DNA of 64,000 bases, taken from the NCBI GenBank assembly GCA_964526665.1, contig CAZGJL010000001.1, positions 61,298 to 125,297 on the forward strand, read 5' to 3'. The position numbers and the translations under genes were made by a program. The notes below the pieces were generated by a model that did not search any database, had not been told where the DNA came from, and worked only from the letters and a program-made list of their open reading frames with translations. Positions 17,701 to 59,644 of this stretch are shown one piece after another; within the stretch, counting starts at the first letter, position 1, and each line of letters starts with the position of its first letter. Origin of the DNA: an uncultured Candidatus Peribacteria bacterium (GTDB lineage: Bacteria; Patescibacteriota; Gracilibacteria; UBA4473).

Positions 17701-17905
17701 TCATTTTTTTGTACCGAATCAAAATATCTTCCACTGCCAACATCGCCGCATGTCCCAGGTGTAATTGCCCGGTCACATTCGGTGGTGGGAGCGGAATTGT
17801 ATAGGACTTTTTTTCGGAAGAGGCATCAGCGGTCATCACCCCTGCCTTTTCCCAAGCAGCGTAAATGACGTCCTCTGAGCCGTTATGATCGTAATTTTTT
17901 TCCAT
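14702..17905 (-). CDS. valS: valyl-tRNA synthetase carrying an internal histidine-phosphatase-like insertion (1067 aa)
   Basis: Shows PPPNVTGQLHLGH (HIGH), KMSKSKGN (KMSKS), WCISRQIWWGHRIP, LDTWFSSALWPFSTLGWP, and a C-terminal coiled coil. It is about 165-190 aa longer than typical bacterial ValRS because of the insert at aa 468-640. Confidence 0.95.
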   Translation of the reverse strand: MEKNYDHNGSEDVIYAAWEKAGVMTADASSEKKSYTIPLPPPNVTGQLHLGHAAMLAVEDILIRYKKMTGHETLWVPGTDHAAIATENVVLKHLGMKTREEMTREEFLTECRKFAGEKHDRITHQIKKMGAHLDWTREAYTFDSERNFSVNFIFKKLYEDDLIVRGHRMVNWSVGAQSVLADDEVEWDDNQADFYEFWCGPFLIGTVRTETKCADSPVVVHPEAEYVRAENAEGKECIVTKKYYDAHTQLRKDFQIKEVVLGEALVGEEFTAETYAGPRKFWVIADEIIDPGFGTGAMTISASHSPDDFALAQRLDLPLIQKIDFAGTMTDIAGPCAGMPVHEARKRAGELLEEKGLLFEKRPHPNRVPKCYRSGTIVEPMLSPQWFISVEKEFIDKFTGKKTTLKKLMQDAVREDHVKIVPKRFEKVYFQWIDNLRDWCISRQIWWGHRIPVWYDKDENIHLPVEKNILFARHGESEANAKKIIGGDYPLTDNGLQDARKIADTVQGRGIKKIICSDSKRGQQTAEIIAAELNIPFEVWPELAEFTSSELAGKADLKREGPFEIQLDGIKDEELIDISRRAQNVVERLKKEEDALVIGHKNFTAAIFHFSRSEDEEKFVRFRSEWKWKKGEIRELMVLADPVGENLTQDKDTLDTWFSSALWPFSTLGWPDKTPDFEKFYPTDVLETGHDILFFWVARMIMFGRYATGKYPFHTVYLHGLVCDESGQKMSKSKGNGIDPLEVISEVGADAVRLSLVIGATAGNPIPLGKAKITGYRNFVNKMWNAGRFVQLQTANYNLQTTNKEAIPNSLSEKWLLHRLSEVSASVSQKLEKYEISAAGDEIYHFVWDEFCSWFLETQKVDKNPVFLYGVFLEVLKLAHPLVPFITETLWEELGPKESLLIEQNFPTVKSKDKESAELFASMQEIVTEIRKVRAEKKLNPKDKISVKISAGKKANSLQETTEVMKVLANLSDVKIAEKASKPERAAMVLVNGMEIFVEVPFDAGAEKKRLENEIVTLEKSVSGLKGRLSNKAYTDKAPEHLVAQTQQQLADAEAELKTLRAELKSL

Positions 17906-27341: not shown

Positions 27342-27416
27342 TCCCGAGTAGCTCAGTGGTAGAGCAGTTGGCTGTTAACCAACTTGTCGCCGGTTCAAAT
27401 CCGGCCTCGGGAGCCA
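27342..27416 (+). tRNA. tRNA-Asn (anticodon GUU), CCA encoded
   Basis: Acceptor TCCCGAG/CTCGGGA, D-arm AGCTCAGTGGTAGAGC, anticodon stem GTTGG/CCAAC with loop CTGTTAA, and T-arm GCCGGTTCAAATCCGGC. Confidence 0.92.
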
Positions 27417-28901
27417 TTCTTGCGTTTTAGACGCATTCAGCAATACATTAAACGGTTCAGCTAAGTCATAGACAAGCTTTCCGCCTTTTAGCTGTAAGTT
27501 CGAAGTCACAAGATTGAGAATCTTCTGTTGTTTGTCTTCAGAAGCCCCTGAAAAATACCGACAAGCGTTTTGAGCAAGGTCTAATACCATCAAACTTGCA
27601 TCAAGAAAATTATTATCCTGTGTGCTTGCATCCTTCATTTCTTCGTGAACATCCTGCTCTTCAGAACGAAACCGTGCGACAATTTTGTCGTATTCATCGG
27701 TCGTAATACGCCCATCAAGCCGATCAAGGTAGGATGTATCTTTTCGCTTTTTGATTTTCTCGAGTTCTAAATTCAACCGACTTAGGTTTTTTTGATAAAT
27801 TTCTGTTTCAGAACCATGTGTTTTTTTGAGTTCTAAGGTTACTTCGTCCAAAACATTCTGGGGCATAACCAACTTTTCCAATAAATCTGAAACTTGTGCT
27901 TGAAGTTTTTCAATTCGTATCGGTTTTTCTTGGCAATTTTCTTTCTGATTTGGACATCTACAATAACGAAACACTTTTCCGTTTGGCTTGATTGTCTCAT
28001 CAAGCGTAATACTAGATCCGCAAGAGCCACACTTGAGAATCCCTCGAAAAGAAAAATCTTTACTCGCATACTTCACGCTATTTCTATTTCGCCCTTCTCG
28101 AATATCAAAACACTTATCAAATATCCATTTTTCAACCAAAACAGGGTATCTGTGCGGATACAACTTTTCTTTGACCTTCATTTGCCCACAATAGAAAGGA
28201 TTCGCGATCATCTCTTGGATCTGTCCGTATGTTCTTTTTTTACCTGATTTCGGAGTCGTAAGACCATCTTTCCGCATTTCTTTTGCAATCATTTTGAACG
28301 TATAATTCCCTGTCGCATAAAGATCGAAAGATTTCTTTACCAAAGGAGCTCTTTCTTTGTCGAGAACAATATCCTTGCGACCATTTTCCAACGTCACATT
28401 TCTATATCCAAGAGGTGCAGGTCCACACCATTCGCCAAGTTCCCATTTCTTTTTGTTGGATCGTTTCACATTGTCCGAAAGTTGCAAAACATACATTTTC
28501 GCAAACATAACTGCCATATCCCAACGCATAATTTCAGAACTGTTTGAGTCTTTGTGTATGACAAGATTTTCTCGATTGAAGTGTAATTCAATCTTTCCTA
28601 CTTTTCTGAGAGCATCCAATTCTACAGATTCTTTGAAAGAACGTTGCAACCTGTCTACGGTGTCAGTAATAATTGCAATCGGCTCAGGACGGTCATTTAC
28701 AAGTTTGAGCAATTTCTCAAATTTCACTCTATTTTCTTTTGAAGAAGATTCCGTAAGTTCGTATGTTTTGAGTACTTCAAAATCAAGCTTCTTAGCATAT
28801 TGCTCTAGTCTACTTACTTGAGCAGGAATAGATGTTCCTTGTTCTTCTTGGTCTTTTGAAGACACTCGAGCGAGAATGATAGCGTTGGTACAATTGGTCA
28901 T
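27375..28901 (-). CDS. large serine recombinase (resolvase/invertase N-domain, recombinase domain, zinc ribbon, coiled coil)
   Basis: AIILARVSSKDQEEQG carries the catalytic Ser motif. DTVDRLQRS and CGSCGSS...YCRCPNQ form the zinc ribbon. The last 14 codons are antisense to tRNA-Asn. Confidence 0.88.
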   Translation of the reverse strand: MTNCTNAIILARVSSKDQEEQGTSIPAQVSRLEQYAKKLDFEVLKTYELTESSSKENRVKFEKLLKLVNDRPEPIAIITDTVDRLQRSFKESVELDALRKVGKIELHFNRENLVIHKDSNSSEIMRWDMAVMFAKMYVLQLSDNVKRSNKKKWELGEWCGPAPLGYRNVTLENGRKDIVLDKERAPLVKKSFDLYATGNYTFKMIAKEMRKDGLTTPKSGKKRTYGQIQEMIANPFYCGQMKVKEKLYPHRYPVLVEKWIFDKCFDIREGRNRNSVKYASKDFSFRGILKCGSCGSSITLDETIKPNGKVFRYCRCPNQKENCQEKPIRIEKLQAQVSDLLEKLVMPQNVLDEVTLELKKTHGSETEIYQKNLSRLNLELEKIKKRKDTSYLDRLDGRITTDEYDKIVARFRSEEQDVHEEMKDASTQDNNFLDASLMVLDLAQNACRYFSGASEDKQQKILNLVTSNLQLKGGKLVYDLAEPFNVLLNASKTQEWLPRPDLNRRQVG

Positions 28902-28951
28902 CGAGATAAATGTAAATGAATAAGTTCCGAATATCAAGAACGATTTTGGTA

Positions 28952-30106
28952 CTACTGAGGAAGTTTTAAATAATCAATATCATTTGTGGGTTCAAATTCT
29001 ACAAGTTGATCGTAAATAGCGTCATAGGTTGTGTATCGGTTATAAAATATTTTTTCGTTTTGAGAGACAAACTTTTTTAATCGCTGAAAAGAACGAGGAC
29101 AAAATCGTTTTGCAATCATGTCATGAAGTTTTCGATCGGAGTTTGTTTTTGATAATTCAAGCACAGCAAAAAGACTCAATGATTTTTGAAGTGTTATTTC
29201 TGGAATTTTCAGAACAGACTCGAATAAATCTATCGGTTTTCTACTCATAAGAGCACTCAATCGCACTTCTTCATGAATCTTGCACCAATAATCCAAAAGA
29301 ACATTTTGTGCGATCTCTCGGGTAAAAAGACCCTTGAACGTCAGATCTGCCTCTATGCGTAAATACTTGAGTAAGGCTTTCATCTTTCTTCGATCACAGA
29401 TACGCATTTCCATTCGCAAAACCTCAATAGGGATTGATTGTTTTCGTCGAATTTCATCAAAAATGTTCATTTGCCAATTAAACTTTTTATCCTTTTCCGA
29501 AGACCGTTTTTCTGGTTGAATCAAGTCTTGTACTTTGTCATAAAAAACCAAGCTATGGCTCTTTGCATAGTAATACAAAGCCTTCCCTTCATTTCGGAAA
29601 TCAGTTTTATTGAGATCAAGTCTACGAGTAAGATCTACTTTTGATATGTCAGAAATAAGAGCAGAAGCTGTTGTATGGTCCGTAAAACAGAAGTTTTTGG
29701 AATAATGAATCGTCGCTATGTCCGCAGTTCTTAATTTTTCGAGAGAAACATTTACCCACATTTCTTCTAATTTTTCCTTCAACTGGACAAGCACCGTTTC
29801 AAAATCAGATTCTTCAACCTCTTGAAAATTATTCCCATATAGTAATTTTGGCACAGAAAATTCGATTTTCATTTCAACATTAAACCCGCCTTCCCTTCCA
29901 AGCCTTTTTATAACCGTCAATCGTGGCTTATAGTTCTGATTTTCTTTGTCCCATTTGTTCGCATTCTGTACAGACTTCAAATTTGTCTGTCCGTTAAATG
30001 GAGTATAGGGAGCAGCAAAAAACCCCAAACAATTCGGTCTAAAAACATTGTAATTGGTAATCTGAAAATCAAATTGTTTTAGCTTTAGAATAACGGTATC
30101 AATCAT
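28952..30106 (-). CDS. rolling-circle replication initiator, filamentous-phage gene II/X-like
   Basis: MIDTVILKLKQF..., EMKIEFSVPKLLYGNNFQEV, IATIHYSKNF and VLRMEMRI parallel M13 gpII MIDMLVLRLPF, EIKASPAKVLQGHNVFG, ISRIDATF and LVRFEARI, in the same order. Confidence 0.65.
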   Translation of the reverse strand: MIDTVILKLKQFDFQITNYNVFRPNCLGFFAAPYTPFNGQTNLKSVQNANKWDKENQNYKPRLTVIKRLGREGGFNVEMKIEFSVPKLLYGNNFQEVEESDFETVLVQLKEKLEEMWVNVSLEKLRTADIATIHYSKNFCFTDHTTASALISDISKVDLTRRLDLNKTDFRNEGKALYYYAKSHSLVFYDKVQDLIQPEKRSSEKDKKFNWQMNIFDEIRRKQSIPIEVLRMEMRICDRRKMKALLKYLRIEADLTFKGLFTREIAQNVLLDYWCKIHEEVRLSALMSRKPIDLFESVLKIPEITLQKSLSLFAVLELSKTNSDRKLHDMIAKRFCPRSFQRLKKFVSQNEKIFYNRYTTYDAIYDQLVEFEPTNDIDYLKLPQ

Positions 30107-30185
30107 TTGCTATAAGTGGCTTAATTGAGTATTATGTATCTGGAAATTGGTCATCAACCCTTTCCATTTCTTACCTTCGGGCTCA

Positions 30186-30596
30186 TCAGGTGTTAAAACG
30201 CCTGATAATATCTTCAAAAGTGGGCTTGTCTAACATTCCCATTTTTTTTAGTAATCGTTTTTCATCATAAGAATTTGCTTGATCTAGCATTGCTTTTCCC
30301 ATTTTGTTTCTAAAAAAAGTTGAAACGGTAAATGTCCCTGTATATTTAGAATTACTGGTCAAAGGAATTCCCAAAAATCTTTGATTATTAAACTTCTTGA
30401 GGACCAATACAGGTCTTTGAAATGTTTCATTTTTTCCATAAACTTCAGTCCCAACGCCATGTCCTATTGAGGTAAGCCATACTTCCCGCTCTTTGAAGTT
30501 TATTTTTCGTTCTAAAAAGTGAAGCTTTTGAGCGAATAATGACCATTGAATAAGTCTTTTTGCATTTTTTGCTCGAGAAAAACCGTTATTCATCAC
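30186..30596 (-). CDS. PemK/MazF-family toxin-like protein
   Basis: REVWLTSIGHGVGTEVYGKNETFQRPVLVLKKF...LGIPLTSN...AMLDQANSYDEKRL follows the MazF pattern (G.E..g.RPvlVl...v.P.TS...v..dQ.r..d..Rl). Confidence 0.6.
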   Translation of the reverse strand: MMNNGFSRAKNAKRLIQWSLFAQKLHFLERKINFKEREVWLTSIGHGVGTEVYGKNETFQRPVLVLKKFNNQRFLGIPLTSNSKYTGTFTVSTFFRNKMGKAMLDQANSYDEKRLLKKMGMLDKPTFEDIIRRFNT

Positions 30597-30738
30597 TTGA
30601 AGGGGTTATTGAATAATTCGATAACCGCTCTTCCAATTGTTTTTCTTTCTTAATTTCCCAAAGCACTTTAAAAAACTCGACCAAGTTTTGTTTGGCTTCG
30701 GGTGTAAGAACGAAATTGTCTTGAGGAAAATCAGTCAT
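30586..30738 (-). CDS. putative antitoxin (50 aa) overlapping the MazF-like start
   Basis: Small ORF whose 3' end overlaps the toxin start by 11 nt. Assigned by position only. Confidence 0.35.
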   Translation of the reverse strand: MTDFPQDNFVLTPEAKQNLVEFFKVLWEIKKEKQLEERLSNYSITPSSDE

Positions 30739-30865
30739 CAATGCGTTCCTCTGAACACCAATCAAAACAGTCAAGCCCCTTTATCAATTCATAGACAAGC
30801 AATTCCCTCAATTTATTGTCTATTACAAAGAATCCAATCAAAAAAAATCAACTTGCTTCATCTAA

Positions 30866-30880
30866 TTTGAAATTGAATTA
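30866..30880 (-). repeat. AATTCAATTTCAAA motif, copy 3 (upstream of the TA operon)
   Basis: On the minus strand it reads ataattcaatttcaaatta. It shares the 13-mer AATTCAATTTCAA with 25530..25542. Confidence 0.65.
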
Positions 30881-30902
30881 TAAACAGAAACACCAAGATT
30901 TC

Positions 30903-31832
30903 TTAAAAATGGTGTTCTAGTTGGTGTTTTGTTCGTAAGTCAGACCGCATACACGAGAAAGTATTTTGGAAAACAATATTATCTTCTGCATCTTGCGTGA
31001 ATAAATTCGTTTTCAAGTGTTTAGAAACCTTTTTTTCAATCTTGCTCTTTTGGGCATTGATAGATCGAATACTTGTTTTGAAAGTAATAGCAAGGGATGC
31101 TGTATCTGTACCCTTTTCAAGTCCTTCTCTTCCGAATCTTCTTTGATAAATAAGATCAACAATTTCTCTTTGCATTTTTGAAAGAGTCTCTAAGTTTTTG
31201 AATTGATCTGCTCCCTGATTTCCCAAAAGAAGACACGAAGGATCTCTTTTTTGATTGTGTTTGAAACGAAAACAAATATCACGATCAATTTCTAAGTCTG
31301 TCGACCGCTTCCTTTTCAGTTCGTTTTCATAGTTTCCTTGCGGATCATTATGAGCGACACTTGCCAAATTTCTTTTGAGTAATTCCAAGTCTTCAAGAGA
31401 AACTTCTAGGCGATATTCAAAAGCACTATTCAAAAACTCAGCAAATCCCTGATCTGACCAACAATTTCCTTCTTTCCGTAACATTTCAAGAATACTATTT
31501 GCCGCATCGGCGTTGATAGTCTTTGATTTATTTTCATCCAAAAGAAATGAGAGCTCTTCTCGTATCGTTTTGAGGCTTTCAGGCGTTTCTTTTGGCAGAA
31601 GCACGTCAAGGTCATTGATGACCTCAGAAGCCCTCTGAAACGAAATGGTCGTCAAATTTCCACGAAATTTTATCTGCTTCAGCTTTGAGAAGTCTTGAAA
31701 CAAGACAAACAACAAAATAAAGGCATCATTTACTCTACCTATTTCAAATCCTTCTTCTGTTTGAAAAACTGATTTCTTAAAAAAAGATTCTACCGCCTGT
31801 ACAGAAATTGGAAGCGTATAGAGTTTATTCAC
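30903..31832 (-). CDS. hypothetical protein with C-terminal LuxR/sigma70-region-4-like HTH (309 aa)
   Basis: LSKMQREIVDLIYQRRFG...GTDTASLAITFKTSIRSINAQKSKIEKKV resembles a LuxR-type HTH. The N-terminal 200 aa is unrecognisable. Confidence 0.5.
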   Translation of the reverse strand: MNKLYTLPISVQAVESFFKKSVFQTEEGFEIGRVNDAFILLFVLFQDFSKLKQIKFRGNLTTISFQRASEVINDLDVLLPKETPESLKTIREELSFLLDENKSKTINADAANSILEMLRKEGNCWSDQGFAEFLNSAFEYRLEVSLEDLELLKRNLASVAHNDPQGNYENELKRKRSTDLEIDRDICFRFKHNQKRDPSCLLLGNQGADQFKNLETLSKMQREIVDLIYQRRFGREGLEKGTDTASLAITFKTSIRSINAQKSKIEKKVSKHLKTNLFTQDAEDNIVFQNTFSCMRSDLRTKHQLEHHF

Positions 31833-32233
31833 GCAACCATTTTGCCAAAACCCTCAGTCAAAAGCAATTCTGGCGGAATCAGGTTATGCCCTGAGTGGTT
31901 TTGAGATACTCGAAAGTTAAAGACGCTACGCCCCGATTCTTTAAATGGAATTATTCTAAAGCTTGTTTCGTTTTCATAACACCGAACACGGATTGATTGT
32001 ACTTTCTTCGGATCAAGAGCAAATCCTTCTGGCAAGACATGAGCATACGCTTGATGAAATTTATCGGGTTCAAAAGTGCTTGGATTGATAAGCTGAATAC
32101 CGAACCTCTCTTGAATCTGACTTCTTATTTCCTGCTCTGTTTGTTCTGTTTCTGTAAATTCAAAAAGGCTCTCTGACGGTTGTTCGTCAGCTACAATTAT
32201 TTCCTTATCTGTTACGGAGTCGAGTAAAGACAT
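31829..32233 (-). CDS. hypothetical protein (134 aa)
   Basis: ORF whose stop overlaps the downstream start by 4 bp (translational coupling). It lies 38 bp downstream of the S-subunit gene. Confidence 0.5.
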   Translation of the reverse strand: MSLLDSVTDKEIIVADEQPSESLFEFTETEQTEQEIRSQIQERFGIQLINPSTFEPDKFHQAYAHVLPEGFALDPKKVQSIRVRCYENETSFRIIPFKESGRSVFNFRVSQNHSGHNLIPPELLLTEGFGKMVA

Positions 32234-32270
32234 CCTGCCATTATAGCAGATTTAAAGAAGAAATTCAATC

Positions 32271-33740
32271 CTAATATTCTAAACGGATTTCAATTGGCTC
32301 TTCCATTACAATTTTATGAACTAAGTCTTCTAATTGTTCACGAAGTGAAAATATCTCCATATTGAGCTGAAAAATACCAGCTTCAGCATTTCTTGTTTTT
32401 TCTTTTTCGAGATAATTCTCAAGAGTTAAGTTTATATTTTTCTCAATTGGGCTGTAATACAAATTTGAAACTTCTTGTTGTTTTTTTTCTGAAAAACTAG
32501 GAAATTTTAGAAAAGCAAAATCATAAGATTTCATCTCTTTCATTTTTGACCCTATCGCCACACAACCACATAATTTTCTATAAGTTTTTGAATTTAATAG
32601 GCAGGTGATAAATAATTTTTCTGTTTTTGAATAATCTTTAATTTGATATAAACCTTGGTTATGTTGCCCTAATCCAAGAGTTTCAACTTCATAAAAACAC
32701 GTAATACCAACATATTCCCCCTTTTTCCCTTTTGACGTTCTATTGATAATAAGGATACAATCTTTTGATAAATTATTTTTTGTATCCATGTTTATTGTCG
32801 TTGAAGGTTGATAATTTCCTTCATCTGTAATCAGCGTTGGGGTAACCCATTTATATTTTTTATTTTGAGGATCAAATATTCTAATTTTAGGAGTTGATCC
32901 ACTTTTAAATTTATCAAGTGGTATTTGGAAATATCCATCTTTATAATTTCTTATCAAAAAATCAATTTCCTTAAATTCTCTCTCATAAATCCCTGTATCC
33001 AGCCTTGTCTCTTCTTTAATCTCGCTAATTCTCGGATAGCCATAGCTAAAACTTTCTGCTTTTTGATTTTCTTTGAGTTCTTTTTCTATCAGTTCATCGA
33101 TCTGGTTGTTTTTTAGTTTTATTTGTTCTTCTTTGTCGATGATATTTTGCACCACAAGAGAGGCAAACTCTTCTACTTTTTCAGGATTTTTGTTATTTGC
33201 GATTGTAGGGAATGGGATTTTAAAATTTAAAATTTGATGTGGTAAAAATTCTGAAATTGTTCCCCCGTGAGAAACCGTCTTTGCGTAATCTACAAGTAAT
33301 TTTGATTTTAAAAATGCTAAACAATAAAAAAGGAGTGTATTATTGATTTTAACAGCGTACATATTGTTGCTGTGTATAATATTCTCGTTATTTTTAATGT
33401 TCAAAAATGATATTTTCTGAACACTTCCTCTAGTTGCAAAAAAGATCCAATTACCATTTTCCAATTTATAAGAGAATGGTTTTGTACTTGCTACCTCCGA
33501 AAGATTAGTCTTAAAAAATTGTTCTTCAGAGGAGGAAATTTTCAACATTTTAAAATCACTTTTTACAGTAACCTGAACAGGATTTTTCCCCAAAAAAGAT
33601 TCTTCCCTGAGGTCTTCTATTGTTTTCCCATTTTTATTTTTAATAAATATATGATGATATTTTGAAGACGCAAAAGCATACTGTTTCTCAAGTATTTCAC
33701 TTTTCCTTACCGATTTTGGTTTAATAATATAACTTTTCAT
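32271..33740 (-). CDS. restriction-modification specificity (S) subunit, two target-recognition domains
   Basis: 489 aa. Two repeats of the conserved S-subunit junction (FKIPFPT...EEQIKLKNNQIDELIEKEL and LKFPSFSEKKQQEV...) are each followed by a coiled helix. It starts 2 bp after the MTase-nuclease gene. Confidence 0.7.
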   Translation of the reverse strand: MKSYIIKPKSVRKSEILEKQYAFASSKYHHIFIKNKNGKTIEDLREESFLGKNPVQVTVKSDFKMLKISSSEEQFFKTNLSEVASTKPFSYKLENGNWIFFATRGSVQKISFLNIKNNENIIHSNNMYAVKINNTLLFYCLAFLKSKLLVDYAKTVSHGGTISEFLPHQILNFKIPFPTIANNKNPEKVEEFASLVVQNIIDKEEQIKLKNNQIDELIEKELKENQKAESFSYGYPRISEIKEETRLDTGIYEREFKEIDFLIRNYKDGYFQIPLDKFKSGSTPKIRIFDPQNKKYKWVTPTLITDEGNYQPSTTINMDTKNNLSKDCILIINRTSKGKKGEYVGITCFYEVETLGLGQHNQGLYQIKDYSKTEKLFITCLLNSKTYRKLCGCVAIGSKMKEMKSYDFAFLKFPSFSEKKQQEVSNLYYSPIEKNINLTLENYLEKEKTRNAEAGIFQLNMEIFSLREQLEDLVHKIVMEEPIEIRLEY

Positions 33741-33742
33741 AG

Positions 33743-35911
33743 TTAATCCATTTGTGATAAATGAAAAGCGTCTTTAATTTCTTCTTCTTGTCTTTGTAAA
33801 AACTCTTTCCATTCGCTTTGCATTGCCGAAAAATCCTCATTTAGTTTTCCTGTTTTCTCAAAAGTCTCTTCATTGATAATATATTGCGGAGCAAAATGAA
33901 CCGATCGTTTAACCGTCTTTACTTCATAACCAATATTTTGAATTTCTTTTACAAATACTTCGTAATCCGCATGAAGCAAATTCTGTTCGTTTTTCTTTGG
34001 TTTGTAGGCAATGATAACTGTTGTTGCAACTCCTGTTTCTCCAAAAGTATTGCTCGGTAAATCAAAAGTTCCGACAATTCTCATTTTAGACAAAAACCAT
34101 TTACGGATATTTTGCCATTCTTTGATACTTGCTATCGAATTAGAAAGAACAATCGCCATTCTTCCACCATCCTCAAGACACTTGTAAGCATTCTCTAAAA
34201 ACAAAACTCCCATATCCATTGAGTTTGGATATTTTTTATTTCCTTTCGCGTCTAAATCTGATTTTTCCTTAAATGTTTCGTAAAGCTCAACCGTTTCCTT
34301 GGGCAAATCCCATTTTCCATTTGCCCCCGTTTTTAAGTCTCTTCCTTTTCCAAAAGGGGGATTTGTCGCAATCATTTTAAATTTTTTCAAATCTTTACTT
34401 GAATCAGAAAGATGATTCCAGCTTATTGGATTATAATTTTTTGTAGTAAATTCGCCTTCTTTAAGCACACTTCCTCCTTGCAGAAGTTTCTGCGAAAGTG
34501 AATTCATTTGCTCAAGGACTGCTCCACCATCTCCATTGAGGACAAGATTAAGTTCCGCAAGCTTAAGATTGCTTCCCTCGAGATCAAAACCGTAAAAATT
34601 ACTCGCATTTGGTGGAAAATCAGGCTCTTCTCTGTGGGAATGACGAAAAGCCATTGCAGGAAAATCACAAATTCCACAACAAGGATCGCAAAGTTCTTCT
34701 CCTTTGATAGGATTTAAAAGTCGAATCATATTTTTTACCACAGGAATTGGCGTAAAAAATTGTCCCTTGTCTGCTTTTTGTTGTTCACTTCCAAAGTTAT
34801 TGAAAATGATTTGATTAAAACTTTCATTTTTAGCTTTAAGAATTGCCCTTTGCTGAAAAGTCTCAACAAGCGCGACAAGAAATTTCTCATCATTGCTTTT
34901 TGAGGGTCTAAATTCAGCATCGTACATAAACATCCTTTTTTCTCTGCCAAGAACCTTTGGATATTCTTTTTGGGCTTCCTTATAGAGATTGTTTATTCTT
35001 TCACGAAAACTTGTTTCAGCCAGTCCGTCTTTTCTTTTTTCGCCTGGAAGAATATAAAACTCTAAAAATGATTTATCTCTTTTGCTTCTTTTTTCATCAA
35101 AAACTTTGAGCGTTAAAAATTCAACAATCATTTCACGAAGAGGACTTTCTGGGCGAATACTGTCATTGGCTCTTTTCAATGAGTTCATTAAATCATTAAA
35201 ATTTGCTTCATCTATGGCATCAAGAGAATCAAGCTTTAATTTTGCGAGATCAGAAATACTTTCATTGTTCTCTATAAAATCTTGCTGACTTGGAAGATCA
35301 ACAAGTAAATCCCTTTTTTCTAAATTCCAACCAATTATTCCATCTTGTTGTAATTCATTTGTTTCGTTAAATCTTCTAATTTCAGAATTTCCAATTTTTT
35401 TGAAAAGCAAAATGTCTGAATGATCGTCAAAGTAAACCCCGAAAATTCTATCTTGCGAAGTATTGAGCTCCATTGCCGAACGAAGTTGATTCTCAATGGC
35501 ACTTTCAACAGATTTATTGTTTTTCTTTGTTTCAAAAATCACGAGAACATTTTGACGAATCTTTGCAAAGTTTTTACTCGATTTTGCTTGCTCATAATCT
35601 TGTAACCAATCTTTATTTTTGAAAACAACAATATCAGGATTAAGACTTTTTCCACCATTTCCTTTGGGAAAACCAAATTCAACACAAATATATTCTTTAT
35701 TATACATTCCACTTTGCACCATAGCCCACACAAAACGGGCTCGAATATATTCTTCACTAAAGACATTTTTTGTGTCCCTTGTTTTGGCATTAGAACAGAA
35801 AGATTCAACTTGAAGCTCGGTTTGATACCATTTTCGATCTATGTTTTCGAGTTCTGAATATTTTTCATCAAACTCTGCCAAATACGAACTGAATATTTTA
35901 GAATTGATCAT
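33743..35911 (-). CDS. fused PD-(D/E)xK endonuclease and gamma-class N6-adenine DNA methyltransferase (BcgI-like type IIB/IIG RM subunit)
   Basis: N-terminal ...VEFGF...NPDIVVF...VIFETKK (E78/D93/E127-x-K129). MTase motifs are GQFFTP, ELCDPCCGICDF (motif I) and IATNPPFG (motif IV). No helicase/HsdR is nearby. Confidence 0.8.
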   Translation of the reverse strand: MINSKIFSSYLAEFDEKYSELENIDRKWYQTELQVESFCSNAKTRDTKNVFSEEYIRARFVWAMVQSGMYNKEYICVEFGFPKGNGGKSLNPDIVVFKNKDWLQDYEQAKSSKNFAKIRQNVLVIFETKKNNKSVESAIENQLRSAMELNTSQDRIFGVYFDDHSDILLFKKIGNSEIRRFNETNELQQDGIIGWNLEKRDLLVDLPSQQDFIENNESISDLAKLKLDSLDAIDEANFNDLMNSLKRANDSIRPESPLREMIVEFLTLKVFDEKRSKRDKSFLEFYILPGEKRKDGLAETSFRERINNLYKEAQKEYPKVLGREKRMFMYDAEFRPSKSNDEKFLVALVETFQQRAILKAKNESFNQIIFNNFGSEQQKADKGQFFTPIPVVKNMIRLLNPIKGEELCDPCCGICDFPAMAFRHSHREEPDFPPNASNFYGFDLEGSNLKLAELNLVLNGDGGAVLEQMNSLSQKLLQGGSVLKEGEFTTKNYNPISWNHLSDSSKDLKKFKMIATNPPFGKGRDLKTGANGKWDLPKETVELYETFKEKSDLDAKGNKKYPNSMDMGVLFLENAYKCLEDGGRMAIVLSNSIASIKEWQNIRKWFLSKMRIVGTFDLPSNTFGETGVATTVIIAYKPKKNEQNLLHADYEVFVKEIQNIGYEVKTVKRSVHFAPQYIINEETFEKTGKLNEDFSAMQSEWKEFLQRQEEEIKDAFHLSQMD

Positions 35912-35972
35912 CGTGCTTAAATTTACTCTTTTTCAGTTTTTTTTCTATCCTTATTTTGTCCTTATTCAAAAA

Positions 35973-36125
35973 ATGCAAATACCTCCCAAAGCAATCGCCG
36001 AATTTAAAGCCCTTTGGAAAAAGGAATTTGGAGAAGAACTTTCAGACGAAAAAGCCACATCTGAGGCAAGAGATCTATTGACTCTGACAAGATTGGCTTC
36101 AGGAGAAAAGAATGTTTTGCCATAA
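35973..36125 (+). CDS. small hypothetical protein (50 aa)
   Basis: ATG-initiated part of ORF 35841..36125, divergent from the RM operon and upstream of mrr. Confidence 0.3.
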   Translation: MQIPPKAIAEFKALWKKEFGEELSDEKATSEARDLLTLTRLASGEKNVLP

Positions 36126-36164
36126 AGAACTATCCAAAAAATAAATTCCTTTTAGAATGAAGAC

Positions 36165-37052
36165 ATGGAATTACCAAAATGGCACGAAACATTTATCGCT
36201 TGTCTTGAAGTTTTAAAAGATGAAAAACTCTTACATTATGCTGAATTGGCACAACGTGTAAGAGATGAGCACTACTCACGCCTTCCCGAAGAATTATTAC
36301 GAAAAAAAACAAAAAGCGGACAGCCCACGATCATCAATCGTATTGGATGGGCAAAGTCAGGACTCAAAAATGCAGGATATATTTCTTCTCCCGAAAGAGG
36401 ATTTGTACAGATTACAAAGAAGGGAATTGAAACGCTTGCAAAAGGAATCCTGACTCTGAAAGAGCTAAATGCTCAGCCCGAAATAATTGCATACAAAAAA
36501 GAACTCGAAGCTTCAAAAGAATCTGAAGAAGATATTTTTATTGAAAGTGCCTCTCCCCAAGACTTGATCGATTCAGGGTTTACAAAGATAGAATCCGAAA
36601 TAAAAAAGGATTTACTCGAAAAATTAAAGACTATTGATCCTTATTATTTTGAGAAAGTGATTCTCCTTCTTTTGGAAAAAATGGGATATGGAGATTTCAT
36701 TGAAACAAAAAAATCTGGCGATGGCGGAATTGATGGGATTATCAATCAAGATAAATTGGGACTTGAGAAAATTTATATGCAAGCGAAACGATTTCGTGAC
36801 AATAAAGTTCATGAAACCGATATTCGCAACTTTATCGGTGCAATGAGTGGCGATACTCAAAAGGGCGTTTTCGTTACAACCTCCTCTTTTGATTCAGGGG
36901 CAATCAATAAGGCAAAAGAAGCTCGTCATTCTATAATTTGTATTGATGGCATCCGATTAGCAGATCTCATGCACCAATATAATGTCGGAGTACAAGTAAA
37001 AGACGTATATGAGGTCAAAGAGTTGGATGAAGATTTCTTTGAAGCGGGTTAA
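36165..37052 (+). CDS. mrr: Mrr-family type IV (modification-dependent) restriction endonuclease
   Basis: Mrr N-terminal winged helix (...INRIGWAKSGLKNAGYISSPERGFVQITKKG) and the Mrr catalytic domain (FEKVILLLLEKMGYG...GDGGIDG...IYMQAKR...GVFVTTSSF). Confidence 0.88.
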   Translation: MELPKWHETFIACLEVLKDEKLLHYAELAQRVRDEHYSRLPEELLRKKTKSGQPTIINRIGWAKSGLKNAGYISSPERGFVQITKKGIETLAKGILTLKELNAQPEIIAYKKELEASKESEEDIFIESASPQDLIDSGFTKIESEIKKDLLEKLKTIDPYYFEKVILLLLEKMGYGDFIETKKSGDGGIDGIINQDKLGLEKIYMQAKRFRDNKVHETDIRNFIGAMSGDTQKGVFVTTSSFDSGAINKAKEARHSIICIDGIRLADLMHQYNVGVQVKDVYEVKELDEDFFEAG

Positions 37053-52991: not shown

Positions 52992-53453
52992 TTATTTAAC
53001 TCGCTCTTTTGCTTTTTCCTCTAGAAACACCCGAGCAATTCCCGCATCGATCATTTTCTCCCAGCAGCTTTCACAACACCACCAGTGACCCCACAGGTAT
53101 AAATCTGCTCCCCCGGCATCATGCCCATTTTTTTTGACGTCCCGAAGAGCTTGTTGCTCTGCGTGAAATTTTGGCGAACAGCCATAACATGTCCAATACC
53201 CTTTTCCTGATGGTACAGAAAAAATCCCTCTCAGTCCTTTTCGCACACAACCAATCTGTTTGTGGAAAAGAGAATGATTTGCGCCTCGTCCTATAATTGC
53301 GCCCTCTTTCACCACAACCGCTCCCGTCGGATGACCTCGGTCCGTAGACAAAACTTCGGATGATTTTCGTGCCTCAACCATAAATTCGTCCTCTGCAGAA
53401 ACATATAAAATGTCCCACCCCAGTGGTAAATATGGCAATTCTTTCGTTTTCAT
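52992..53453 (-). CDS. comEB: dCMP deaminase (ComEB/cytidine-deoxycytidylate deaminase family)
   Basis: Zinc motifs HAEQQAL and CCESC (PCxxC-type). Length 153 aa. Confidence 0.85.
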   Translation of the reverse strand: MKTKELPYLPLGWDILYVSAEDEFMVEARKSSEVLSTDRGHPTGAVVVKEGAIIGRGANHSLFHKQIGCVRKGLRGIFSVPSGKGYWTCYGCSPKFHAEQQALRDVKKNGHDAGGADLYLWGHWWCCESCWEKMIDAGIARVFLEEKAKERVK

Positions 53454-54100
53454 TATTTTTGTTTTTTCAGCTGCCCTAGCTGCCCCGTTCGTATCAACTC
53501 CAGTTCCTCGTCCGCGTCACATTTTCCGTCTAGTCCATTTGCTTTTGCTCCTTCATATTTTGCCGGTTGGGCACCATGACGCATTGCGTCTTCTTTTTGC
53601 AAGCTGCTAGCAAGTTTCTGAAACACGATCTGACAAACCCGTTCTCCTGGATAAATACGAATTATTTGTGATGTTGTTTTATTTAAAATAGGGATCATTA
53701 AGTGCCCCGAATAATGGGCGTCTACGATTCCCGTGAGATCGACTGAAAGTCCTCGACGATTTACTGAACTTCGTGGATATAGCACGCCCATTAAATCATC
53801 TGATCGCAAAGATACTTTTTCAAGGGTGCTCGCAATTACTGATTCCCCGGGCGCAAGCTCGAAGAACTGTCCCGGCTCCAACTCAATTTTTTCAAAATTA
53901 TCCGCCACGCTTTGTGTTACGTCTACAGTCAAAACTTCTCGCCCTCTGTCTGTAATCTTCCAGATTTTCGGTAAATAAAAGGTTGTCCCTAGTCGCAGAT
54001 CTACGGCGTGCGGCTGATCTTGATATTTATCTAGCGTTGGCTCAAAAATTAATTTTTCCTCGGCGATAAGTTTCCCGATTTCGTGTCGTGTTAAAATCAT
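53453..54100 (-). CDS. dUTPase/dCTP-deaminase-superfamily protein, probably a nucleotide pyrophosphatase rather than a deaminase
   Basis: Dcd-like N-terminus (AVDLRLG), PRSSVNRRGL, and GIVDAHYSGHLMIPILN. The position of the E. coli Dcd catalytic Glu138 (IVLEFYN) is Pro (codon 53690..53692). Confidence 0.75.
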   Translation of the reverse strand: MILTRHEIGKLIAEEKLIFEPTLDKYQDQPHAVDLRLGTTFYLPKIWKITDRGREVLTVDVTQSVADNFEKIELEPGQFFELAPGESVIASTLEKVSLRSDDLMGVLYPRSSVNRRGLSVDLTGIVDAHYSGHLMIPILNKTTSQIIRIYPGERVCQIVFQKLASSLQKEDAMRHGAQPAKYEGAKANGLDGKCDADEELELIRTGQLGQLKKQK

Positions 54101-57357: not shown

Positions 57358-58212
57358 TTATAAAACAATAGACATTCTCCCTAGTGACTCTTGTGGTTCG
57401 TATTTTGACTTCAGTTGTTCAAAACACTCCCGTACCAATTCCTCCGAGTCGTCGTCTCCTTTTTCTGCTCTATCAAAAGCATTTTTTGGACACTTAAAAG
57501 GAATAACTCCTGACAAACATTCGCGAGCAATAATCTCTTTTGCTTGATCGAAATGAATGTCGTAAATATGTGCGTTAGATATTGAAATCGTGAGAAACCC
57601 AACCCCGGCGCCCAGTTTTTCTGCGAGAAAATGCGCCAACAGAGCAAACCCCGCCGTATCATGCGGGTTCCCGAGCATCATGTCATTTGATCGAATCACC
57701 AGATGAAGATGCAGCTTCCCTCCAATAATTTGTACCGTAAAAGTATATGGGCACGGAACATTCTTCTTTTTTGTTCCGCTTGATAATCCGTCATCTGCCG
57801 GATCCCACATAAGGATTACTCCGTGTCGAGAGCTTGGGTCTTTGGACAAAAGTTGTACCAATCCGTCCACTTGATCGCGACCAAAGTGCTTCCTCCATCT
57901 ATATCCATACGCCGACTCCACGCAGTTGTTTTCTTCTGCAAAGTCATCCCATATTTTTGTGAATTTCTGCAAAAACTCAAGGTTCTTTCCTCCCATAAGA
58001 AACCATACTTGTTCGGCAATAAAAACTTTTAACGGGATTTTTCTTAGAGTAAGCAAGGGAAATCCTTTCGCTAAATCAAACTTCATCGTCATCCCCGGAA
58101 GAGATTTACACACGTGTCCCGTGCGCTCGTTCACCTCTTCAAAGCCATGCTCCATGATCTCTCTAAGCAATTTCTGATACTGCACATCAAATTGATTTTT
58201 CATCATCCTCAT
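57358..58212 (-). CDS. thymidylate-synthase-family (ThyA-fold) pyrimidine-nucleotide C5-transferase with Asp at the base-specificity position
   Basis: Aligns without gaps to E. coli ThyA from Cys146 to Asn177: VPCPYTFTVQIIGGKLHLHLVIRSNDMMLGNPHD versus [47 protein letters not shown] and AHIY are conserved. Start is at M10 or M13 of the ORF. Confidence 0.85.
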   Translation of the reverse strand: MRMMKNQFDVQYQKLLREIMEHGFEEVNERTGHVCKSLPGMTMKFDLAKGFPLLTLRKIPLKVFIAEQVWFLMGGKNLEFLQKFTKIWDDFAEENNCVESAYGYRWRKHFGRDQVDGLVQLLSKDPSSRHGVILMWDPADDGLSSGTKKKNVPCPYTFTVQIIGGKLHLHLVIRSNDMMLGNPHDTAGFALLAHFLAEKLGAGVGFLTISISNAHIYDIHFDQAKEIIARECLSGVIPFKCPKNAFDRAEKGDDDSEELVRECFEQLKSKYEPQESLGRMSIVL

Positions 58213-58232: not shown

Positions 58233-58442
58233 ATGACAACTCAAAAAATCACCGGAGACGAAACAATTGGAGAAATCATGATGATGAAGTCCTCTGCGGG
58301 AGAAATCCTTTTTGATGCGGGCCTTGGGTGTGCCATGTGCCCCCATGCACAAGTGGAAAGCCTAAAGGAGGGGTGTATGGCCCACGGATTTGATGACGAA
58401 GAAACAACATGCCTTATTCATGACCTTAATAACGCCGAATGA
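58233..58442 (+). CDS. DUF1858-type small redox-disulfide-domain protein
   Basis: ITGDETIGEIM...FDAGLGCAMCPHAQVESLKEGCMAHGFDDEE matches the hybrid-cluster-protein-associated redox disulfide domain pattern (Gm.C.gCp......E.l.eA...HG.d). Confidence 0.65.
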   Translation: MTTQKITGDETIGEIMMMKSSAGEILFDAGLGCAMCPHAQVESLKEGCMAHGFDDEETTCLIHDLNNAE

Positions 58443-59644
58443 AAACAATCTTCCTCGCCGCCGGGAAAAGCAGTCGCATGGAGCCCCTTTCTGATAAAAA
58501 TTTTTTAGAGTTTTGTGGCGAACCTCTTCTTATAAAATTACTGAAAAACGCCGAAAATGGTGGGCTTAAAAATTTCATAATTGTTGCAAACAAGGAAAAT
58601 AGAGAAAAAATTGAAAACACCTTGCAAAAATTTTCTTTTACGGCTGATGTAGTGATTCAAGAGGAACAAAAAGAGGGAATGGCGGGAGGCGTTTTGACGG
58701 GATTGCAAGCATGTGACCCCGAGGAAGAAGTGGTTTTGCTTGGAGGAAATGACGCAATTGACCCCGCTATTTATAAAGAGCTCTTAAGTGTTGGGGGAAA
58801 GGCTGATGGTGCTCTTGTAGCAAAATCCATTGATAAATATTTCCCGGGTGGGTATTTGCAAATAACTGGTAAAAAAATAACGACAATAATTGAGAAACCC
58901 GGAGAAGGAAATGAGACATCGAGTTTGGTGAATATTGTTGCCCATTATTTTAAAAAATGTGGAGACCTAAAAGGAAAACTGATCGCTCTTGATCTTTTGA
59001 AGTCTGGGGACGCATATGAACAAGCACTCCAGGTGTTGCTTGAAACGCGAGAGTTTCATGTGGTTGAGTATGCTGGTGAATGGCACGCAATAAAGTACCC
59101 ACATCATGTTTTAGAAATGCAGGAGTATTGGCTCTCCCTGCTGCCAAAAGAAAACGAGATTCATCCCTCTGTTGTAATTTCTGACACGGCGCGTATTCAT
59201 GGTGAGCAAGTATATATAAAAGAGGGGGTTAAGATTTTTGATAACGCGGTTGTGTGTGGCCCCTGTTTTATAGGGAAAAATTCTGTTATCGGAAACAACG
59301 CCCTTGTTCGTGAATCAAATATTGGGGAAAAAAACGAAATTGGGTTTTGCAGTGAGATTGCAAGAAGTTTTTTGTCTCAAGGCGCGTCGGCACATCACGC
59401 GTACATTGGAGACTCTATTATTGATAAAAATGTAAATTTTGGAGCATTTTCTTGTACCGCAAACCTCCGGTTGGACAAAAAAGATGTAAAATATCTCATA
59501 AAAGAAGAGCGTGTAAGCTCCGGGAGAACGAAGCTGGGGGCTATTATCGGAGAAGGTTCGCAGATAGGAATTCATGCGATGTTAATGCCTGGGTGCAAGA
59601 TTGACGCAAATAGTTTTATAGCGCCAGGAGTTGTTCAAAAGTGA
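58439..59644 (+). CDS. sugar-phosphate nucleotidyltransferase with C-terminal left-handed beta-helix (GlmU/GMPP-like)
   Basis: MKTIFLAAGKSSRM is the NTP-transferase G-loop. Hexapeptide repeats occupy the last 150 aa. Start overlaps the upstream stop (ATGA). Confidence 0.8.
   Translation: MKTIFLAAGKSSRMEPLSDKNFLEFCGEPLLIKLLKNAENGGLKNFIIVANKENREKIENTLQKFSFTADVVIQEEQKEGMAGGVLTGLQACDPEEEVVLLGGNDAIDPAIYKELLSVGGKADGALVAKSIDKYFPGGYLQITGKKITTIIEKPGEGNETSSLVNIVAHYFKKCGDLKGKLIALDLLKSGDAYEQALQVLLETREFHVVEYAGEWHAIKYPHHVLEMQEYWLSLLPKENEIHPSVVISDTARIHGEQVYIKEGVKIFDNAVVCGPCFIGKNSVIGNNALVRESNIGEKNEIGFCSEIARSFLSQGASAHHAYIGDSIIDKNVNFGAFSCTANLRLDKKDVKYLIKEERVSSGRTKLGAIIGEGSQIGIHAMLMPGCKIDANSFIAPGVVQK

Follow-up and report, generated by a model that had tools for sequence, protein, structure and literature searches.

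Here, we describe a gene for a thymidylate synthase homologue on a stretch of 64,000 nucleotides (the window) from an uncultured Candidatus Peribacteria bacterium, a Candidate Phyla Radiation (CPR) member. The encoded ThyA-family enzyme (the query) carries aspartate, Asp185, at the place of Asn177 of E. coli ThyA, the residue that determines pyrimidine specificity. In the best-supported reading, the gene is a cellular housekeeping gene that belongs, within the thymidylate synthase (TS) family, to the Asp-177 branch, and its product is a predicted C5-methyltransferase of deoxycytidine monophosphate (dCMP). Such an enzyme would allow thymidylate (dTMP) to be made in reverse order, from deoxycytidine triphosphate (dCTP) via dCMP and 5-methyl-dCMP, and in our judgment the chances for and against this route are about level. 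The residues, the membership in the clade and the fold are shown here, as is a gene clustering conserved across many CPR lineages.

An earlier note on this DNA (the original prediction) had placed Asp at the Asn177 position. This holds in HMMER alignments to solved ThyA structures, where LGNPHD of the query stands opposite LGVPFN without a gap, and MAFFT alignments with E. coli ThyA agree. Recomputation returned identical codon positions for this Asp and for the catalytic Cys (Table 1), and alignment confirmed the replacements of Arg127 by His and of His147 by Pro that had been noticed before (residue positions are given in E. coli ThyA numbering unless a query residue is named). The likeness of the local motif IRSNDMMLGNPHD to T4 gp42 (NMRSNDVVFGFRND) also holds when the real T4 sequence is compared. 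Beyond these changes, the query shows the coupled replacements W83F, L143N and Q165I as well as two loop indels, and its signature as a whole reads F83/H127/N143/C146/P147/I165/S167/D169/D177. It has Asp in place of the Asn177 of canonical ThyA specific for deoxyuridine monophosphate (dUMP), and Pro, Ile and Asn in place of the canonical His147, Gln165 and Leu143 around the pyrimidine. Because R21, E58, W80, Y94, R126, R166, S167, D169, H207 and Y209 are kept, the catalytic apparatus is intact.

The assignment to the thymidylate synthase superfamily is given by a Pfam match to PF00303 (Thymidylat_synt; E = 5.7e-56), and the best solved-structure matches are bacterial ThyA proteins with ~30-35% identity. 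An AlphaFold2 model with a predicted local distance difference test score (pLDDT) of 88.6 shows a full-length TS fold with a TM-score of 0.78-0.85 to E. coli TS, and the C-terminal ...IVL is invariant across the family of the query. The ATG start yields 284 aa; an alternative TTG start is listed in Table 1.

Mutagenesis and phage surveys treat the N177 position as the dUMP/dCMP switch and H147 as the second most discriminating position, and the mutations N177D and N229D shift the preference of ThyA towards dCMP (PMC8670742). To place the query in the family, 1.84 billion representative proteins were searched exhaustively and 150 representatives at 50% identity were compared. The nearest of them almost all have Asp177 together with Phe83, Gln/His/Arg127, Asn143 and Pro147, and canonical Asn177/Leu143/His147/Trp83 proteins turn up only under ~148 bits. 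Annotated phage records supplied the reference sequences of Xp12, PaMx74, Mallos and T4 gp42. In a neighbor-joining tree, which carries no bootstrap values, nearly all Asp177 sequences form one clade. The CPR enzymes make up one group inside it, and T4 gp42 lies close to the base. Two of the representative proteins, P0243 and P0246, combine Pro147 and Asp177 with Leu143, Trp/Phe83 and Arg127 and are placed among canonical ThyA; they appear to have switched to the Asp type independently and more recently.

Two profile hidden Markov models (HMMs), one trained on 56 phage-type Asp enzymes and the other on 21 canonical enzymes, gave the query 279.2 and 239.5 bits, respectively, and eight further CPR enzymes also prefer the Asp-type HMM, the margin for the nine being ~40-70 bits. 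Tree, HMM scores and order of hits thus agree in grouping the query with Asp-type enzymes rather than with canonical ThyA, if by a moderate margin, and clustering with dUMP-specific ThyA was seen in none of the three. PMC13326640 lists twelve residues within 6 Å of the pyrimidine C5; identities with the query number 10 in Xp12 TS, 8 in T4 gp42 and 6 in E. coli ThyA.

The exchange is not confined to this genome. The motif RSND..LG.PHD is found in 120 of 120 database homologues of 70-100% identity. A scan with one genome per species of the Genome Taxonomy Database (GTDB) gave 67 loci with a ThyA homologue, all 67 with Asp at the N177 position; 66 have (K/A)N(V/I)PCP around the catalytic Cys, and the 67th is a fragment that does not reach it. 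Asp at this position is therefore fixed and is neither a chance nor a private substitution. CPR/Patescibacteria labels are attached to 52 of the loci (Gracilibacteria/Altimarinota, Peribacteria, Uhrbacteria, Kaiserbacteria, Saccharibacteria, Paceibacterota and Parcubacteria); other record labels include Gammaproteobacteria (n=10) and Thiotrichaceae (n=1). Since the two Gammaproteobacteria-labelled sequences in the tree (L055 and L078) fall with Uhrbacteria sequences, these labels may be wrong or the genes may have been transferred.

The gene lies in a cellular setting. The window contains recA, metG, purL/purQ, sodA, hisS, valS and two tRNAs, and the parent 160-kb contig runs on into rpoC, rpsL, rpsG and glyA. 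A 77%-identical homologue adjoins rpoC on a circular chromosome of 1.33 Mb, and in another lineage rplA is the neighbor of the ThyA homologue. A prophage or phage origin of the locus was ruled out by the flanking recA, lexA, metG, purL, sodA, rpoC and rpsL/rpsG and by the homologue on the 1.33-Mb chromosome, and a pattern scan of IMG/VR revealed no close relative of the query. An alternative genetic code had been considered for the 3′ end of the window, which is poor in open reading frames, and was ruled out as well: the absent frame is rpoC running past the window end. An Rfam search gave no relevant match.

Regarding the reaction, an acidic residue at position 143 marks hydroxymethylases (T4, MilA) and Asn169 marks 5-hydroxy-dCMP synthases (PMC13326640). 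The query has Asn151 where T4-type hydroxymethylases have Asp/Glu143, and an Asp (residue 177 in its own numbering) at E. coli D169, where synthases of the RB69 gp48 type have Asn. MilA prefers cytidine monophosphate (CMP) by virtue of Ala at TS-167 together with Lys at TS-126, residues linked to ribose tolerance; here the query carries the deoxy-type residues Ser175 and Arg129. Its combination of Asp177, Asn143, Pro147 and Phe83, with Asp169 kept, is that of the Xp12-type dCMP C5-methyltransferases of Xp12, PaMx74 and Mallos, which also share S167. Around the catalytic Cys, KKNVPCP of the query corresponds to QKNVPCP in Xp12 and Mallos and QRNVPCP in PaMx74. Both indels are common to the query and Xp12: AYGYRWRxHFGRDQ stands in both where E. 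coli ThyA has the longer loop WPTPDGRHIDQ, and WDPAxDGL....KNVPCP where E. coli ThyA is shorter (WNVGELDKMALAPCH). The query differs from the Xp12 type in overall sequence (35-36% identity), in His at R127, Asn at 168 and His at 176, and in the location of its gene in bacterial chromosomes beside rpoC and ribosomal protein genes. Compared with canonical ThyA (EC 2.1.1.45), it shares the fold, the dimer-type architecture, Cys146, the hydrophobic C-terminus and the coupling to dihydrofolate reductase (DHFR), but differs by N177D, H147P, L143N, Q165I, W83F, R127H, the two loop indels and its lower score on the canonical than on the Asp-type HMM.

Ser167 and Arg126 favor dCMP over CMP as the substrate, and Asn143, Asp169, the conserved TS-like C-terminus and the DHFR gene that overlaps the TS gene in related CPR loci favor a methyl over a hydroxymethyl product. 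In ThyA, reductive methyl transfer features a conserved, closing C-terminus. Hydroxymethylases cause no dihydrofolate production, and a DHFR gene that adjoins or overlaps the TS gene fits an enzyme that makes dihydrofolate. The original prediction had proposed a cytosine nucleotide as substrate, and with it a pathway to a modified base or an indirect path to dTMP by way of the neighboring deaminase. The clustering with Asp-type enzymes, the Xp12 signature with its indels and the partner families shared with phage modules for 5-methylcytosine (5mC) all lend support to this proposal as far as sequences can. Where it had offered "dCMP (or CMP)" and "5-methyl- or 5-hydroxymethyl", dCMP and the methyl group are favored over CMP and the hydroxymethyl group. 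In experiments, Xp12 TS and 5/7 other Asp-type enzymes produced 5-methyldeoxycytidine (5mdC) in vivo, and cytosine is replaced by 5mC in the genomes of Xp12 and PaMx74 (bioRxiv 10.1101/2024.12.05.627091).

Another C5-modified cytosine nucleotide, such as 5-hydroxymethyl-dCMP, 5-hydroxy-dCMP or 5-hydroxymethyl-CMP (hmCMP), could be made either for a modified base or for a natural product of nucleoside type, in the manner of T4 gp42, RB69 gp48 or MilA. The Asp specificity residue and the RSND motif, both shared with the dCMP hydroxymethylase T4 gp42, speak in its favor, as do a domain with a weak match to the MilB family fused to the Uhrbacteria-type deaminase (described below) and the polar Asn at position 143 in place of the bulky Leu said to exclude water (PMC13326640). 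Nevertheless, we consider such a product very improbable. Asn143 is also found in the methylase Xp12, Asp169 is kept, Ser167 and Arg126 are of the deoxy type, and the coupling to DHFR points to dihydrofolate production. T4 gp42 is only 20% identical to the query, has Asp143 and Thr147, is without the TS C-terminal segment and shows no DHFR link. MilA, the CMP hydroxymethylase of the mildiomycin pathway, is likewise a cellular ThyA homologue with Asp177, but it has Ala167, Lys126 and Asp143 and is encoded in a cluster for an antibiotic. The query has Ser, Arg and Asn at these positions and belongs to a deoxynucleotide cluster; no glycosyltransferase or antibiotic-pathway genes were seen near the TS gene.

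The neighboring genes of this cluster are listed in Table 1. In the window, the genes for TS, DHFR, a protein resembling dCTP deaminase (DCD-like protein) and a deaminase all lie on the same strand. Of the 67 loci, 42 have DHFR no more than 10 kb from the TS gene, and at the same distance 37 have the DCD-like gene and 36 have the deaminase; these are minimum values because many loci are short contigs. As with Xp12-type enzymes, the TS is thus encoded together with DHFR and a deaminase of the dCMP family. The DHFR gene adjoins the TS gene in many loci, directly so in L004/L023, and overlaps it by 4 bases in L054 and L055.

The DCD-like protein carries Pro137 at the site of the catalytic Glu (E138 of E. 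coli Dcd), and in the alignment to M. tuberculosis and E. coli Dcd its MIPILN stands opposite TLELSN/VLEFYN. All 36 DCD-like relatives that cover the site have Pro (the 37th is a C-terminal fragment), and we rejected this neighbor as a dCTP deaminase feeding dUMP because the Glu is Pro in every one of them. It exceeds the NCBIfam cut-off for TIGR02274 "dCTP deaminase" (102 vs 92.8 bits), so automated annotation names this Glu-less protein a deaminase. Some of its motifs (PRSS..., GIVDAHYSGHLMIPILN) recall dUTPase. Nine Uhrbacteria-type loci (L060, L061, L067, L069, L071, L073, L074, L077 and L078) have a canonical Dut with 31-39% identity to E. coli Dut, located ~100-500 bases upstream from the TS gene. 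A thymidylate kinase with an N-terminal extension of ~70 aa lies farther out, and with the other genes this gives a six-gene deoxypyrimidine cluster. Since the Pro variant coexists with canonical Dut, it is probably not simply the dUTPase of the cell, and we infer that it is a dCTP pyrophosphatase. Two comparators were set aside: T4 gp56 has another fold and does not align, and the phage sequences that matched the DCD-like protein best came from haloarchaeal viruses, as pairs named "dCTP deaminase / thymidylate synthase". These pairs consist of ThyX and a genuine DCD that retains the catalytic Glu, and served as controls only.

The deaminase, a dCMP-type neighbor already claimed in the original prediction, is indeed present. 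It has the zinc motifs HAE at residue 97 and CxxC at residue 127, and H-x-E and C-x-x-C are kept in 13 aligned members. The best solved-structure matches of its family profile are the dCMP deaminases 4p9c, 2hvv and 2w4l, which are distant. The Uhrbacteria-type deaminase is ~150 aa longer (L054 15465..16442; L055 11327..12250), and in L054 the extra domain gives a weak match, 24.5 bits and under the cut-off, to Nuc_deoxyrib_tr (nucleoside 2-deoxyribosyltransferase). The nucleoside 2-deoxyribosyltransferase family also includes N-glycosidases of deoxynucleoside monophosphates (dNMPs). The hmCMP glycosidase MilB belongs to Nuc_deoxyrib_tr as well (PMC4081090).

Two tandem paralogous genes for small membrane proteins without a Pfam match separate the TS gene from the DHFR, DCD-like and deaminase genes in the window; in relatives such as L023, the genes are contiguous. 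In both membrane proteins, YWLGTIRILI appears as an N-terminal motif, and their C-terminal helices are similar. Genes for a DUF1858 protein and a nucleotidyltransferase/hexapeptide-repeat protein lie upstream of the TS gene in divergent orientation, a position kept in 21-23 of the 67 loci.

Table 1. Coordinates in the window of the ThyA homologue, its active-site codons, neighboring genes and other features
Feature	Position	Strand	Evidence
ThyA-family enzyme, Asp-177 (cytosine) type, 284 aa; predicted dCMP C5-methyltransferase	57358..58212	minus	PF00303, signature, profiles
Alternative TTG start of the ThyA homologue	58239		
Asp185, GAT codon, at E. coli ThyA Asn177 (pyrimidine specificity determinant)	57658..57660	minus	HMMER and MAFFT alignments
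N-V-P-C-P codons: Asn151 (L143 position), catalytic Cys154 (C146), Pro155 (H147)	57748..57762	minus	alignment with phage enzymes
Cys154, TGC codon	57751..57753	minus	
Pro155 codon (H147 position)	57748..57750	minus	
His130 codon (R127 position)	57823..57825	minus	
Dihydrofolate reductase, 168 aa	54097..54603	minus	PF00186, PF01872; gene call in L001
dCTP-deaminase-like protein, 215 aa, without catalytic Glu; predicted dNTP pyrophosphatase, possibly dCTPase	53453..54100	minus	PF22769, TIGR02274
Pro137 codon of the DCD-like protein	53690..53692	minus	
Zinc deaminase of dCMP type, divergent, 153 aa; putative deaminase of 5-methyl-dCMP (or dCMP)	52992..53453	minus	PF00383, E = 2.8e-12
Tandem small membrane protein, 180 aa	56139..56681	minus	no Pfam match
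Tandem small membrane protein, 193 aa	56761..57342	minus	no Pfam match
DUF1858 protein (69 aa) and nucleotidyltransferase/hexapeptide-repeat protein (401 aa)	58233..59644	plus	
Valyl-tRNA synthetase with inserted His_Phos_1 domain	14702..17905	minus	
Likely integrated island	27342..37052		
tRNA-Asn	27342..27416		
Large serine recombinase	27375..28937		
MazF/PemK toxin	30186..30596		
Type IIG-like N6 DNA methylase/Eco57I protein	33743..35911		
Mrr restriction endonuclease	36165..37052		

The set of genes in CPR resembles the modules of Xp12, PaMx74 and Mallos, which consist of a hydrolase or nucleoside triphosphate (NTP) pyrophosphatase, TS(Asp), dCMP deaminase and DHFR. The partner pyrophosphatase has a DCD/dUTPase fold in CPR and is MazG- or HAD-like in the Xp12 type, and the partner deaminase of CPR is not detectably related to the phage deaminases. 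On phage-like contigs, TS(Asp) was also seen with a Dut/DCD-like gene of the dUTPase fold and a deaminase, and one of these contigs has a deaminase::TS(Asp) fusion beside a Pro-variant DCD-like gene. Co-localisation of deaminase and TS is reported for 70% of modified-cytosine contigs vs 6% of unmodified ones (bioRxiv 10.1101/2024.12.05.627091). TS fusions seen were deaminase::TS (P0143), MazG-like PRA-PH::TS (P0221) and HNH::TS (P0144). In addition, P0121 (locus L007 10001..11401) is an Asp-type TS of 466 aa with an N-terminal extension of 188 aa without a Pfam match; its contig also carries murD and a gene for an aminoacyl-tRNA synthetase.

What the enzyme takes and makes, what the pyrophosphatase and the deaminase act on, and what becomes of 5-methyl-dCMP are inferred. 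In the proposed route, the Glu-less DCD-like protein would hydrolyze dCTP to dCMP. Cys154 of the ThyA homologue would then attack C6 of dCMP, with Asp185 contacting N3 and N4 of the cytosine, and the methylene group of 5,10-methylene-tetrahydrofolate would be transferred and reduced to yield 5-methyl-dCMP and dihydrofolate. The cofactor could be regenerated by the co-clustered DHFR and by serine hydroxymethyltransferase, which is encoded just outside the window. The dCMP-type deaminase would convert 5-methyl-dCMP to dTMP, and thymidylate kinase would lead onward. In total, thymidylate would arise by methylation followed by deamination, with dUMP bypassed. The phage route to thymidine triphosphate by a 5mC-selective deaminase (mSCD-B5 / Xp12 5-methyl-dCTP deaminase) follows the same logic, with the deaminase beside TS(Asp). 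Within the dCMP deaminase family, the CPR deaminase stands apart on a divergent branch of its own, and it would be a candidate for the corresponding step at the monophosphate level.

The same genes can be read in the conventional order. The enzyme would then be an ordinary thymidylate synthase that acts on dUMP, or on both dUMP and dCMP, despite its Asp, within a canonical dTMP operon in which the deaminase and the dUTPase/DCD-like pyrophosphatase supply dUMP, TS converts it to dTMP, DHFR recycles the folate and Tmk phosphorylates the product. We regard this as rather unlikely, though it deserves serious consideration, and a number of points speak for it and weigh against the reverse order. 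None of the neighboring genes is out of place in the canonical route. The six families concerned, namely pyrophosphatase, Dut, deaminase, TS, DHFR and Tmk, also form a dUMP route, and the neighbors suit the canonical sequence of steps just as well. Because the gene context leaves the order of methylation and deamination unfixed, only the TS active-site signature and the phylogenetic affinity separate the two routes. The canonical dUTPase lies directly upstream of the TS gene in the Uhrbacteria-type loci. Fold and C-terminus are TS-like, and the query passes the NCBIfam cut-off of the thymidylate synthase family TIGR03284 (143 vs 108 bits). On the canonical HMM, CPR enzymes score ~195-240 bits (239 for the query), compared with ~145-150 bits for the phage methylases; they are thus intermediate and could retain dUMP activity, and a dual dUMP/dCMP specificity is possible. 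A reduced genome needs dTMP, and neither thyX nor a second thyA was found in 1.1 Mb of CPR DNA, which is less than whole genomes. The specificity of the cellular clade is deduced from residues and from phage relatives of only 35-38% identity. In tblastn searches, the CPR deaminase had no detectable relative in the phage collection, and its profile matched generic dCMP deaminases only, so kinship with the phage 5mC deaminases was rejected; moreover, the phage 5mC deaminase requires the triphosphate, not the monophosphate (bioRxiv 10.1101/2024.12.05.627091).

What argues against an ordinary synthase is the enzyme itself. The characterized natural Asp-177 members in the cited papers (T4 gp42, MilA, Xp12 TS, RB69 gp48 and 5/7 metagenomic enzymes) use cytosine nucleotides, the single replacements N177D and N229D turn ThyA towards dCMP, and the coupled set W83F, L143N, H147P and Q165I with its indels is common to Xp12 and has been kept over deep CPR divergence.

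If the enzyme is a dCMP methylase, 5-methyl-dCMP may also enter DNA, with 5mC replacing much or all of the cytosine as in Xp12 and PaMx74; in this case, the Glu-less DCD-like enzyme would drain dCTP, while some of the pool would be channelled to thymidine by the deaminase. The four functions NTP pyrophosphatase/hydrolase, TS(Asp), deaminase and DHFR equal those of the 5mC-phage module, the DCD-like Pro variant stands beside a true Dut and hence probably has another substrate, and an N-terminally extended Tmk-family kinase adjoins the module in 19 loci, with a weak match of 25% identity in a 20th. Even so, this seems quite improbable. We know of no cellular organism with wholesale 5mC replacement. 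The E. coli member of the Mrr family attacks methylated DNA, and a restriction enzyme of this family, which may do likewise, is encoded in the window; this argues weakly against wholesale 5mC. Furthermore, incorporation of 5mdC in E. coli needed a co-expressed promiscuous phage dNMP kinase (bioRxiv 10.1101/2024.12.05.627091), and no promiscuous dNMP kinase is evident in the window.

Two other features of the window were noted. A likely integrated island adjoins tRNA-Asn and comprises, besides the Mrr endonuclease, a large serine recombinase, a MazF/PemK toxin, a type IIG-like N6 DNA methylase/Eco57I protein and several open reading frames without a family match; the GC content is 0.31-0.36 across 28-36 kb vs ~0.42 elsewhere. 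The valyl-tRNA synthetase carries a histidine-phosphatase (His_Phos_1) domain inserted at residues 469-610, a combination also present in a related 828-kb genome (L005 from 20633 onward is listed with this observation).

To our knowledge, methylation of dUMP by ThyA or ThyX is regarded as the universal thymidylate route in cells, and the reverse order, with dCMP methylated and then deaminated, is documented only in phages that replace cytosine with 5mC. Both the Asp-type ThyA homologues and the methylate-then-deaminate route have been described in phages (PMC8670742, PMC13326640, bioRxiv 10.1101/2024.12.05.627091), and MilA-type enzymes in antibiotic pathways. In the literature searched, we found no account in which the conserved chromosomal "thyA" of CPR bacteria is of the Asp type; one review mentions ThyA only as a phylogenetic marker used for CPR. 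The gene would therefore represent a known enzyme type in a new cellular, apparently essential role that current profiles misannotate. The wider proposition, that much of CPR is without a dUMP-dependent thymidylate synthase and makes dTMP only via 5-methyl-dCMP, with some lineages also placing 5-methyl-dCTP in the chromosome, is a long shot. If the proposed route is true, cellular life would have a third way to dTMP, free of uracil, and a systematic annotation error would be exposed, affecting genes now named "thymidylate synthase" and "dCTP deaminase". It might also give a hint at the origin of the phage dCMP methylases, or at the reverse direction. CPR DNA may then carry pre-replicative 5mC, which would bear on methylome analysis, restriction biology and symbiont-host interactions, and if 5-methyl-dCTP enters the chromosome, these would be the first cellular organisms with 5-methylcytosine substitution at the nucleotide level, before replication.

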